The position numbers were made by a program, and so were the translations under genes. The notes under the pieces are model-generated. The model searched no databases. It was not told the origin of the DNA and worked only from the letters and a program-made list of their open reading frames with translations. A stretch of 64,000 nucleotides of DNA from Escherichia phage P896, in the sequence record OL451225.1. One strand, written 5' to 3'. Below are positions 13,625 to 17,778 of the stretch, in pieces (the first letter of the stretch is position 1; every line of letters starts with the position of its first letter).

Positions 13625-13662
13625 ATTATGCCTCATGACCATCTGGTTGTACACTACTTTTT
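13625..13662 (-). promoter_or_regulatory. Early promoter cassette (A-rich / TGTACA / 17 bp / CATAAT), PeSL-like
   Basis: Minus strand: aaaaaagtagTGTACAaccagatggtcatgaggCATAATgattccatactgagttac; shares the aactcagtatggaatcattatg block with cassettes at 17721, 31066 and 39521. Confidence 0.6.
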
Positions 13663-13690
13663 TAAAATAAAAAAGGACCCCGAAGGGTCC
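13661..13690 (-). terminator. Intrinsic terminator-like hairpin downstream of gene 52
   Basis: ggaccccgaagggtcc hairpin (13675-13690) followed on the minus strand by a T-run. Confidence 0.55.
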
Positions 13691-13788
13691 TAGTCTTTAT
13701 CTATCTTATTACCAATAAACATACCAACAATCACACCTGCGATTGCCGCAAAAATACAAAGCAATGCAAACTCAACTCCAAAACTCAT
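13690..13788 (-). CDS. Small hydrophobic peptide (32 aa)
   Basis: MSFGVEFALLCIFAAIAGVIVGMFIGNKIDKD read by hand; ATG overlaps the gp52 stop (ATGA). Confidence 0.3.
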   Translation of the reverse strand: MSFGVEFALLCIFAAIAGVIVGMFIGNKIDKD

Positions 13789-15164
13789 AGAGCCTCCAAA
13801 TCATTAAGGTATTCAGTTTTAACATCAGTTGTCTTCCAGTACTCATGCTCAGCTTTCTTAGCCTTTGCTTCGTCTGCAAGCTTCTTGGCTTCATCAGAGG
13901 TCATATGGTAGATGTTCATCGCCACTAACTTCTCTGCATAATCGCCATATATTTCACTCGCCTGGAGTTCCTCAATCAACTTCTTACGAGGTTTCCCCTG
14001 GATAACAACCTTACCATCAATCACTTCTTTAATAAAGAAGACTTTCGCGCGGGCCAGTTTAAATGCCGCTTCAGTTTCTTTAATCTTACTGTCAATTCGC
14101 ACTTGAACATAAGTCTTACGGACATCAACGAAATCGCGAATCAGGTCAAGCGTGTTGGTGTATTCAGCCAGCTTGCCTTTGTGATTAAGCACCGTTAAGT
14201 TCTGGGAGAGCTTCTCAATCAGACCGAAGTCTTTCATGATTTTCTCATGATTCTCTTCTTCAGTACCATCCAGCTTGTATTCTTTGCGGAATTTAATCTT
14301 AAACCCGAAACCATGCTCGCCGCAGTTATCTTTCCAGGTGATAAAACCTTTCTCTTCCAGTGGGTCCAGAATTTTACTTATATACTTTTCCAGGTTCCAT
14401 TGGACCGGGATTTCAGTAATTTCCATTTGAGTCCTGGAGGTCATTTTGTATGTGCCATGAAGCTCATACTTGCCAGGCTCTTCCAATTCAACAACTTTGC
14501 CACGGAATTCTGGATATTTTACTTTCGGAGCAACCGGCTCACGACCTTCCACGATAGCTTTAACAGCTTCCTTGACGTCCTGGAACGAATGAGGAAGAAT
14601 ATCAGTAGCGAAGCCAACAGCAATCCCAGAAGTGGCGTTAAGTAATACAGTAGGAATAACAGGAAGATAAAAAGCAGGAGGCTTATGTTCTTCATCAGGA
14701 TGGACCGGAGCATATTCTGTATCCTTAAACAAGTTATAAAAGTTCTTTGAAACCCTTGCGAATACATAACGAGCTGATGATGCTTCTGGCACCATTCTGG
14801 AACCAAAGTTACCTTGCCCATCAAACATGGGGTATTCATTTTTATATGTTGCAACCAGACCAGAAGTTGCTTCTTCCGCTGATGCTTCGCCATGGTGATA
14901 ACCATAATCAGCTACGCCACCTGCAATGGATGCAACCTTATGGAATTTATTCTTATCACCGCGCGCCAGGTCTAATGCTCTCGCCATAACAAATCTGTGA
15001 ACTGGTTTAAAACCATCAATCATGTTTGGGATGGCACGACCTTCCACAGTGTATATAGCATATGACAATGCTTCCACATCAATAATGTCTTTTAGACTGC
15101 GTGGGTTAAGGGTCCCCATGGAATCACTGAACTGTTTGGACATCATACTTAAAACGTCAGACAT
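13785..15164 (-). CDS. 52: DNA topoisomerase II medium subunit gp52 (GyrA-like)
   Basis: 459 aa (T4 gp52 about 442 aa); GyrA/ParC-type N-terminal motifs (RAIPNMIDGFKPVHRFV...). Confidence 0.9.
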   Translation of the reverse strand: MSDVLSMMSKQFSDSMGTLNPRSLKDIIDVEALSYAIYTVEGRAIPNMIDGFKPVHRFVMARALDLARGDKNKFHKVASIAGGVADYGYHHGEASAEEATSGLVATYKNEYPMFDGQGNFGSRMVPEASSARYVFARVSKNFYNLFKDTEYAPVHPDEEHKPPAFYLPVIPTVLLNATSGIAVGFATDILPHSFQDVKEAVKAIVEGREPVAPKVKYPEFRGKVVELEEPGKYELHGTYKMTSRTQMEITEIPVQWNLEKYISKILDPLEEKGFITWKDNCGEHGFGFKIKFRKEYKLDGTEEENHEKIMKDFGLIEKLSQNLTVLNHKGKLAEYTNTLDLIRDFVDVRKTYVQVRIDSKIKETEAAFKLARAKVFFIKEVIDGKVVIQGKPRKKLIEELQASEIYGDYAEKLVAMNIYHMTSDEAKKLADEAKAKKAEHEYWKTTDVKTEYLNDLEAL

Positions 15165-15172
15165 ATATCACC

Positions 15173-15313
15173 TTACCAGATTAACGAATGTACTGCCATT
15201 ATAGCATCAGAAATAAAAAGCACAACCTGCACTAATGCAAATACAACTCCATAATACAGCGCTACCAATAATGCAGCAAGGGCTAACGAGTAGCCCAGGA
15301 TTTTCTTAATCAT
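15173..15313 (-). CDS. Small membrane peptide (46 aa; 52.1 position)
   Basis: MIKKILGYSLALAALLVALYYGVVFALVQVVLFISDAIMAVHSLIW read by hand; ATGA overlap with the upstream gene stop. Confidence 0.4.
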   Translation of the reverse strand: MIKKILGYSLALAALLVALYYGVVFALVQVVLFISDAIMAVHSLIW

Positions 15314-15474
15314 CTATTAACCACAGAAATCATAAATTTAACAAAAGCGTCAGTTACAAACCATCCACATAAGAAATAAACAAACCCCATAGGCGGAACA
15401 AAGACACCTGCAAGAAAAAGCGTTACCAAAACAACTACTGCTATCATATAAATGAACGAAAAGACCGTTGACAT
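15310..15474 (-). CDS. ac: Small membrane protein, Ac-like (acriflavine sensitivity) by size and position
   Basis: Track ORF 15310..15495 appears to use a non-ATG start; the first ATG gives a 54 aa protein MSTVFSFIYMIAVVVLVTLFLAGVFVPP... (T4 Ac is about 51 aa) between stp and 52. Confidence 0.45.
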   Translation of the reverse strand: MSTVFSFIYMIAVVVLVTLFLAGVFVPPMGFVYFLCGWFVTDAFVKFMISVVNR

Positions 15475-15481
15475 ATTTTCC

Positions 15482-15562
15482 TCAGGGGCGTCCAAAGACG
15501 CCAGTTAATTTCAGATTATGACGATGCCATTGCATCACATGTTCATTATGGAAATTACTCAT
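15482..15562 (-). CDS. stp: Stp peptide (26 aa; anti-restriction peptide that also triggers the PrrC anticodon nuclease)
   Basis: Hand translation [26 protein letters not shown] closely matches the T4 Stp peptide as I recall it ([26 protein letters not shown]); starts 1 nt after the ndd stop. Confidence 0.8.
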
Positions 15563-15563
15563 A

Positions 15564-16013
15564 TTAATAGCTCTGCAAAATGAATTTAAAGTTATCAGCA
15601 AGCATGCGATTCATTTCTGAAAGGGTCTGACAATCAGAACTATGTGAGCGAGTGAACGCCATCGCAATTTGACCTTTACCATAACCAGTTGTCAGAGATT
15701 TCATTTTAGAAACTGGGACAAACAGGACTTCATAGATAACACCATTGTTCGCCATTGTGCGAGACAGTTGAGAACGCTGTTTGCGGATGTGACTTAACAC
15801 AGTGTCAAACCCTTGTTGTGAACGTTGGTTACCAACATAAAAACGTGCCGCAACAATACGTGATTCACCTTCACCTTTAACCACGAAATAAAAACCTGGC
15901 TGGGCGATAGCTTCTTTAGTTGGACGCCCTGCAACATAATTACCATTATGGATGTAAGCAACAGTGGTAGCGCCGGCATTCAGTACGTCACGACGGGTCA
16001 TGTAAGTAGTCAT
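15564..16013 (-). CDS. ndd: Nucleoid disruption protein Ndd (candidate)
   Basis: 149 aa (T4 Ndd about 151 aa), immediately upstream of stp and ac as in T4. Confidence 0.6.
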
Positions 16014-16056: not shown

Positions 16057-16095
16057 CATTATACTCTGACCCCAAGAGTATGTACACTATTTTTG
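16057..16095 (-). promoter_or_regulatory. Early promoter cassette (TGTACA / 17 bp / TATAAT inside an inverted repeat), PeSL-like
   Basis: Minus strand: aaaaatagTGTACAtactcttGGGGTCAgagTATAATGACCCCactggag, 45 nt upstream of the ndd ATG; near-identical copy at 26650-26695. Confidence 0.6.
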
Positions 16096-16470: not shown

Positions 16471-16510
16471 ATTATACTCTGCTCCCAAGAGTTTGTACAC
16501 TATTCTACAT
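16471..16510 (-). promoter_or_regulatory. Early promoter cassette (TGTACA / 17 bp / TATAAT), PeSL-like
   Basis: Minus strand: gaatagTGTACAaactcttgggagcagagTATAATgttcccagtgg. Confidence 0.6.
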
Positions 16511-17101: not shown

Positions 17102-17140
17102 ATTATACTACAACCACCGGAGATGTACACTTTTTTATGC
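17102..17140 (-). promoter_or_regulatory. Early promoter cassette (TGTACA / 16 bp / TATAAT) with ATCAACTACTG leader
   Basis: Minus strand: aaaaaagTGTACAtctccggtggttgtagTATAATgaacctATCAACTACTGGAGATgattATG. Confidence 0.55.
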
Positions 17141-17738: not shown

Positions 17739-17778
17739 ATTATGCACTGACTCCATACTGATGTACACTACTTTTTAA
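17739..17778 (-). promoter_or_regulatory. Early promoter cassette (TGTACA / 17 bp / CATAAT), PeSL-like
   Basis: Minus strand: aaaaagtagTGTACAtcagtatggagtcagtgCATAATgattccatactgagttacc. Confidence 0.6.

Follow-up and report, generated by a model that had tools for sequence, protein, structure and literature searches.

A reading frame of 26 codons on the minus strand of the window (the whole 64-kb stretch of DNA analysed here) is identified as a genuine ortholog of the T4 gene stp. The identification is based on the identity of its product to the Stp peptides of phages VR25 and T4, on the order of the surrounding genes, on matches to the profiles PF08133 and PHROG 6763, and on tblastn similarities far beyond chance. 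We consider it very likely that this is the stp of a Gaprivervirus-type coliphage and that its product would work as T4 Stp does, as an anti-restriction peptide that triggers PrrC in a response countered by tRNA repair. The gene is already known: an identical copy is annotated in the close relative VR25.

PrrC, a latent tRNA-Lys anticodon nuclease, requires T4 Stp for its activation, and Stp also suffices for it (PMC3014915, PMC1484252, PMC12409349). The peptide lifts the restriction imposed by EcoprrI and EcoR124I, both type Ic enzymes, and leaves their modification in place (PMC3014915, PMC12409349). The cut tRNA is mended by T4 Pnk and RNA ligase 1 (PMC3014915, PMC1484252, PMC12409349). The activity of the peptide is carried by its N-proximal 18 residues, which are almost absolutely conserved in nine T4-type phages; mutations that cause loss of activation are mostly clustered in residues 4-14, and removal of eight C-terminal codons reduces both activities only moderately (PMC3014915). 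A preliminary description of this DNA, made from the sequence, had held that Stp inhibits type Ic restriction and thereby activates PrrC, and this account agrees with the T4 literature (PMC3014915, PMC12409349). How Stp inhibits EcoprrI was still described as unknown in a 2025 review (PMC12707154), and a literature search found no structural study of EcoprrI, PrrC and Stp in complex.

Results

The frame between ndd and gene 52

The window contains long tail-fibre genes followed by motA, 52, stp, ndd, rIIB and rIIA, and continues into replication genes. It is assigned to a T4-like coliphage of the same type as VR7, VR25 and SP18. The best-matching relatives are ~95-97% identical to it across the stp region, with PSD2001 96.5% identical over 24 kb, and none of the matching records is identical. 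Searches of the whole window with Rfam (at gathering thresholds) and with ARAGORN detected no RNA family and no tRNA.

The 26-codon peptide directly after ndd is encoded exactly as the preliminary description had quoted it, on the minus strand. The span given there, 15310-15562, does include stp; it is too wide, 15310-15474 being the next gene, and came with no strand. A single spacer base separates the stop codon of ndd from the start codon of stp (TAA-T-ATG), and at the other end the GAGG ribosome-binding site of the following 54-aa gene overlaps the stp stop codon (TGAGGAAAATATG). As in the T4-like members of the family, stp is placed downstream of ndd and upstream of the ac position, 52.1 and 52 on the same strand, and the order ndd-stp-small membrane protein-52.1-52 is common to the window, VR25 and T4 (Table 1).

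Table 1. Features of the stp region in the window, and Stp-family peptides of siphoviruses
Feature	Sequence	Coordinates	Strand	Description
stp	Window	15482..15562	minus	26 codons and TGA stop; ATG 15562-15560, Pro26 codon 15487-15485, TGA 15484-15482
ndd	Window	15564..16013	minus	Nucleoid disruption protein, 149 aa; Pfam Phage_T4_Ndd PF06591, E = 1.4e-67; TAA stop 15566-15564
54-aa gene, T4 ac position	Window	15310..15474	minus	Hydrophobic membrane protein; phrog_9347 (function unknown), E = 1.1e-19
gp52.1-like gene	Window	15173..15313	minus	46-aa membrane protein; PF24129 (DUF7396), E = 5.2e-20; position as in VR25 and T4
Gene 52	Window	13785..15164	minus	DNA topoisomerase II medium subunit, 459 aa; gp52 in the annotation of relatives; last large gene of the unit
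Promoter-like TGTACA-17-TATAAT, upstream of ndd	Window	16058..16086	minus	10/12 consensus matches; consensus match only
Further promoter-like copies	Window	16471-16499, 17102-17129, 17739-17767, 13625-13653	minus	TGTACA, 16-17 nt spacer, TATAAT or CATAAT
Terminator-like hairpin AGGACCC-UUCG-GGGUCCU and U-run	Window	13674..13691	minus	Downstream of gene 52; consensus match only
Perfect 6-bp hairpin GGCGUC-UUUG-GACGCC	Window	15487..15502	minus	In stp codons 21-26; -10.8 kcal/mol
Stp-family peptide, RP180	L004	1501-1578		Raoultella phage, Kagunavirus; 24/25 identical to T4 Stp; PF08133 70 bits
Stp-family peptide, T145P1	L026	583-675		Braunvirinae; PF08133 52.6 bits
Stp-family peptide, Mishu	L028	601-681		Tlsvirus; peptide MSSWHNEHVMQFYRHRIKKMINSTNC; PF08133 35 bits
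Stp-family peptide, N5822	L006	1501-1596		Henuseptimavirus; PF08133 34 bits; ~500 bp upstream of a PNKP-phosphatase gene
Stp-family peptide, seszw	L027	601-684		Skatevirus; PF08133 30.8 bits
Stp-family peptide, KW1.2	L005	1501-1584		Webervirus; PF08133 27.5 bits

In the ORF listing the stp frame appears only when the minimum is set at 20 aa, and then as a 39-aa ORF with a TTG start (15482-15601). On the ground of homology, the ATG at 15562, and not the upstream in-frame TTG, is taken as the real start of the gene. With its 81 nt, stp falls under the 90-nt minimum that is usual in common gene callers. It lacks annotation in many GenBank relatives and T4-like genomes, where tblastn matches have no feature, or only ndd, underneath.

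The peptide is identical to VR25 Stp at 26 of 26 residues and to T4 Stp (NP_049878.1) at 20 of 26, and the closeness to T4 Stp that had been claimed beforehand holds in alignment. Against the Pfam family PF08133 (Anticodon nuclease activator family; gathering score 25 bits) it scores 55.3 bits (E = 4.4e-15) over profile positions 1-25 of 26, and it matches the PHROG 6763 profile over positions 1-26 of 26 (E = 2e-19). A tblastn search of 50,697 phage records (a 2.3-Gb database) returned a Stp match in 969, including 39 at ≥99% identity, with E values of 4e-11 where the copy is identical and 3e-6 where it is of the T4 type. Its form is that of the family, a short stand-alone peptide (26 codons) beginning MSNFHNEH and sharing residues 1-11 with T4.

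The VR25 copy (phage vB_EcoM_VR25, Gaprivervirus; YP_009210023.1), which carries the RefSeq label "activator of host PrrC lysyl-tRNA endonuclease", has the same neighbours, the same TAA-T-ATG junction and the same hairpin within the gene. It differs from the window by two synonymous changes in stp (AAT/AAC in codon 6 and CCC/CCT in codon 26), and the flanking DNA is ~93-95% identical. T4 Stp is of equal length, and its gene shares the position between ndd and gene 52 and a 6-bp hairpin. In T4, however, the ndd stop overlaps the stp start (TAATG) where the window has a one-base gap, the hairpin loop is UUCG instead of UUUG, and the peptide differs by the substitutions F12W, Y13H, N15H, T19L, K20T and Q26P (T4 residue first).

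The gene at the ac position is labelled "acridine resistance protein" in some GenBank relatives. We rejected it as ac: BLASTP of the 54-aa protein against T4 Ac gave no alignment at all, and it belongs to a different PHROG (9347). Thus, while T4 has ac in that slot, the downstream gene of the window is not a detectable T4 ac homolog. Some Dhakavirus-type genomes (JS98; L023 4175-4348, minus strand; L009) have an extra 57-aa membrane-protein ORF between ndd and stp, which runs into the beginning of the stp frame. Even among phages with genomes of similar type, stp can be of the T4 or of the WH type, a mixture that points to local recombination around ndd and stp.

Synonymous-only change in the first 11 codons of stp

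The codon analysis included 13 distinct DNA versions of the gene from several phage families (18 IMG/VR loci together with GenBank loci); the 18 IMG/VR loci came from a degenerate-pattern scan, and they suffice for the analysis of codons while representing few independent lineages. Across these versions all codons among the first 11 that can vary synonymously do vary, while amino-acid changes number zero. Comparison of the window with the Drexlerviridae phage N5822 over the same codons revealed eight synonymous and no non-synonymous codon differences. Because variation in codons 1-11 is synonymous only, we conclude from these alignments that the Stp peptide is translated and under strong purifying selection; such a pattern is incompatible with an ORF that arose by chance and with an element acting solely as RNA.

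A frame as short as this one, uncalled by the initial ORF track, might in principle resemble Stp by accident. Given the strength of the Pfam match, an identical annotated ortholog, the conserved gene order and the synonymous-only variation, we find this explanation scarcely credible.

Neither the window nor T4 has a strong Shine-Dalgarno sequence before stp, only GAG or AGG 8 nt upstream. Since the Shine-Dalgarno in the window is weak (GAG, 8 nt upstream), stp expression would depend on coupling, and the TAA-T-ATG junction (TAATG in T4) indicates that translation is probably coupled to ndd termination by termination-reinitiation.

A conserved hairpin near the stp stop codon

The promoter-like element upstream of ndd is repeated ahead of successive small early genes, and in the ndd copy, at least, a short inverted repeat (GGGGTCA...TGACCCC) encloses the second hexamer in its loop.

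Two nucleotides separate the hairpin within stp from the stop codon, and the GAGG of the next gene follows closely. The T4 gene has a version with a C(UUCG)G tetraloop (-11.5 kcal/mol), and in the gene at locus L020 a change of GGC to GGT keeps a G.U pair (-8.9 kcal/mol). The structure is present in all collected T4-like GVFGR alleles and is absent in the Kagunavirus copies, which also encode GVFG. As an intrinsic terminator of the stp transcript it was rejected: the sense strand has no T-run, and the antisense (plus) strand was flagged weakly. The hairpin may have a role in mRNA stability or in setting the level at which the following gene is translated.

These features raise the alternative that the frame is conserved mainly at the RNA level, for its hairpin and for the ribosome-binding site it provides to the gene that follows, or as spacing that couples ndd to that membrane-protein gene, and that the peptide has no function. 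The hairpin is kept throughout the T4-like GVFGR alleles, yet only 32 of the 768 synonymous encodings of GVFGR(+C) preserve all six pairs, and the stp stop does overlap the next ribosome-binding site. On the other hand, codons 1-11 vary synonymously only across phage families, and the Kagunavirus and Drexlerviridae copies preserve the peptide in entirely different surroundings, where each has its own strong ribosome-binding site and the hairpin is lacking. Moreover, work with a synthetic peptide, together with T4 genetics, has shown that the Stp peptide itself is active (PMC3014915). We therefore regard a functionless peptide as very unlikely, and favour the reading in which stp is maintained for the peptide it encodes.

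A natural allele with substitutions at positions 12, 13 and 15

Within the functional N-terminal segment, 15 of the 18 residues are those of T4 (1-11, 14 and 16-18), the differences being those at positions 12, 13 and 15; the remaining substitutions (positions 19, 20 and 26) are confined to the dispensable tail. All six columns that are invariant in nine diverse family members (M1, H5, N6, H8, M10 and K18) are kept in the window peptide. The substituted residues recur elsewhere in the family, W12 in N5822, seszw and KW1.2, H13 in KW1.2, and H15 in T145P1, N5822 and Mishu. The allele is identical in VR20, VR25 and VR26 and in JS98- and IME281-size genomes, and W12/H13/H15 is judged to be a stable natural variant.

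Because positions 12 and 13 lie within the mutation-sensitive residues 4-14, full equivalence to T4 Stp, and with it full activity of the window allele on EcoprrI and PrrC, is not guaranteed. The allele could be a specificity variant, one that still blocks type I enzymes but no longer triggers EcoPrrC, or one directed at another set of type I enzymes. Consistent with such a role, the 4-14 segment is where the T4 suppressor mutations that abolish PrrC activation fall, and the allele is stable in nature: 39 records have it at ≥99% identity, it occurs in genomes of the JS98 and VR types, and it is common to Gaprivervirus and some Dhakavirus phages. However, the residues needed for PrrC activation are mostly required for EcoprrI inhibition too (PMC3014915), so the two activities would be hard to separate. 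The changes are also conservative (one aromatic residue for another, or His in place of Asn) and present in many other members, and the relatives keep pnk and rnlA. An altered specificity is thus improbable in our judgement, and activity of the T4 kind remains the preferred reading for the window peptide.

Stp-family peptides in siphoviruses

The family extends beyond the T-even phages: siphoviruses of Kagunavirus, three Drexlerviridae lineages, Webervirus and Skatevirus also encode such peptides, which are mostly unannotated or labelled "hypothetical" (Table 1). Each lies above the PF08133 threshold of 25 bits (range 27.5-70). The near-identity of the Kagunavirus copy to T4 Stp suggests that it was acquired by horizontal transfer. 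A full-text literature search combining Stp or anticodon nuclease with Kagunavirus, Webervirus, Drexlerviridae and Guernseyvirinae returned no paper linking them.

In RP180 a group of three genes (L025 13561-15727) lies amid the tail genes on the opposite strand and encodes a P-loop protein with a weak match to AAA_18, a HAD phosphatase of the PNKP type and a metallophosphoesterase; together they may form a split cassette for the healing of RNA or DNA ends. In a metagenomic Kagunavirus-like fragment (L015 226-405) an indel at the ATGA stop/start overlap has fused the Stp frame to the downstream ORF (GVFGGMKITD...); this may reflect an error in sequencing or a fusion that exists in nature.

tRNA repair genes and the prr locus

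The preliminary description had expected the matching repair genes, pnk and rnlA, elsewhere in the genome. A tblastn search of the 64-kb window with the VR25 proteins for pnk, rnlA and rnlB gave chance matches only (E ≥ 0.4), and support for the expectation is indirect. The VR25 genome has pseT, rnlA and rnlB; rnlA is found at 91-100% identity to VR25 in ~30 relatives, including the nearest ones PSD2001, CJ20 and DK-13 and also UPEC01, TH41 and EAWsc9, and Pnk is likewise found across the same group. By gene order, pseT and rnlA would be expected ~11-15 kb before the start of the window. The repair genes are thus very probably present elsewhere in the phage genome, but the prediction is a trivial one, because Pnk and RnlA are lineage-wide.

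Pnk matched 2261 records and RnlA 1822, compared with 969 for Stp, and both repair proteins reach phages of Aeromonas, Acinetobacter, Vibrio and Streptomyces, hosts that are absent among the most frequent names listed for Stp. In the Stp-bearing Kagunavirus phage RP180 a T4-type RNA ligase was not detected, only a PNKP-phosphatase-domain gene. Since Pnk and RnlA are far more widespread than Stp, and RP180 has Stp without an RNA ligase, the three co-occur by lineage and not as a matched set predicted by Stp.

The further suggestion that the presence of Stp implies prr-type hosts does not stand. Stp, matched in 969 records, is nearly universal among the enterobacterial T-even relatives, whereas the prr locus is optional, and its distribution has been described as sporadic (PMC1484252). 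What the peptide directly gains for the phage under selection is anti-restriction, with or without PrrC. The presence of Stp is therefore no proof that the phage meets prr+ hosts.

Discussion

Our analysis supports a model in which stp would probably be transcribed with ndd, the gene at the ac position, 52.1 and 52 from an early-type promoter upstream of ndd, and probably translated by coupling to ndd termination. Soon after infection, by analogy with the T4 literature, Stp would act on type Ic complexes (EcoprrI, EcoR124I) such that restriction is blocked and modification is not. In the minority of hosts that carry prrC in a type Ic locus, the same event would unmask latent PrrC and lead to cleavage of tRNA-Lys in the anticodon loop. 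The tRNA would then be healed by polynucleotide kinase/phosphatase and sealed by RNA ligase 1, from genes expected outside the window and present in relatives.

Other phage-host pairs follow a related logic. T7 Ocr is likewise a restriction inhibitor that triggers a back-up suicide nuclease or toxin, in its case PARIS, and in Ronin anti-restriction proteins are sensed by an abortive-infection guard in a manner like that of Stp and PrrC (PMC12409349, bioRxiv 10.1101/2023.04.06.535777). None of these factors is related to Stp in sequence. Ocr mimics DNA, whereas Stp is a peptide of only 26 residues.

The stp of the window is a point of annotation: its recognition by hand was correct and useful, and it brings no new biology. 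If the W12/H13/H15 allele were a specificity variant after all, then it and the siphovirus peptides would together mark Stp as an anti-restriction family that has diversified and moves horizontally, and not as a T4 curiosity. The Stp-PrrC-Pnk/Rnl1 system is a textbook case of a phage counter-defence that is sensed by a back-up defence, and the type of stp allele could help to predict the behaviour of phages on type Ic/prr hosts, for example their host range in phage therapy.
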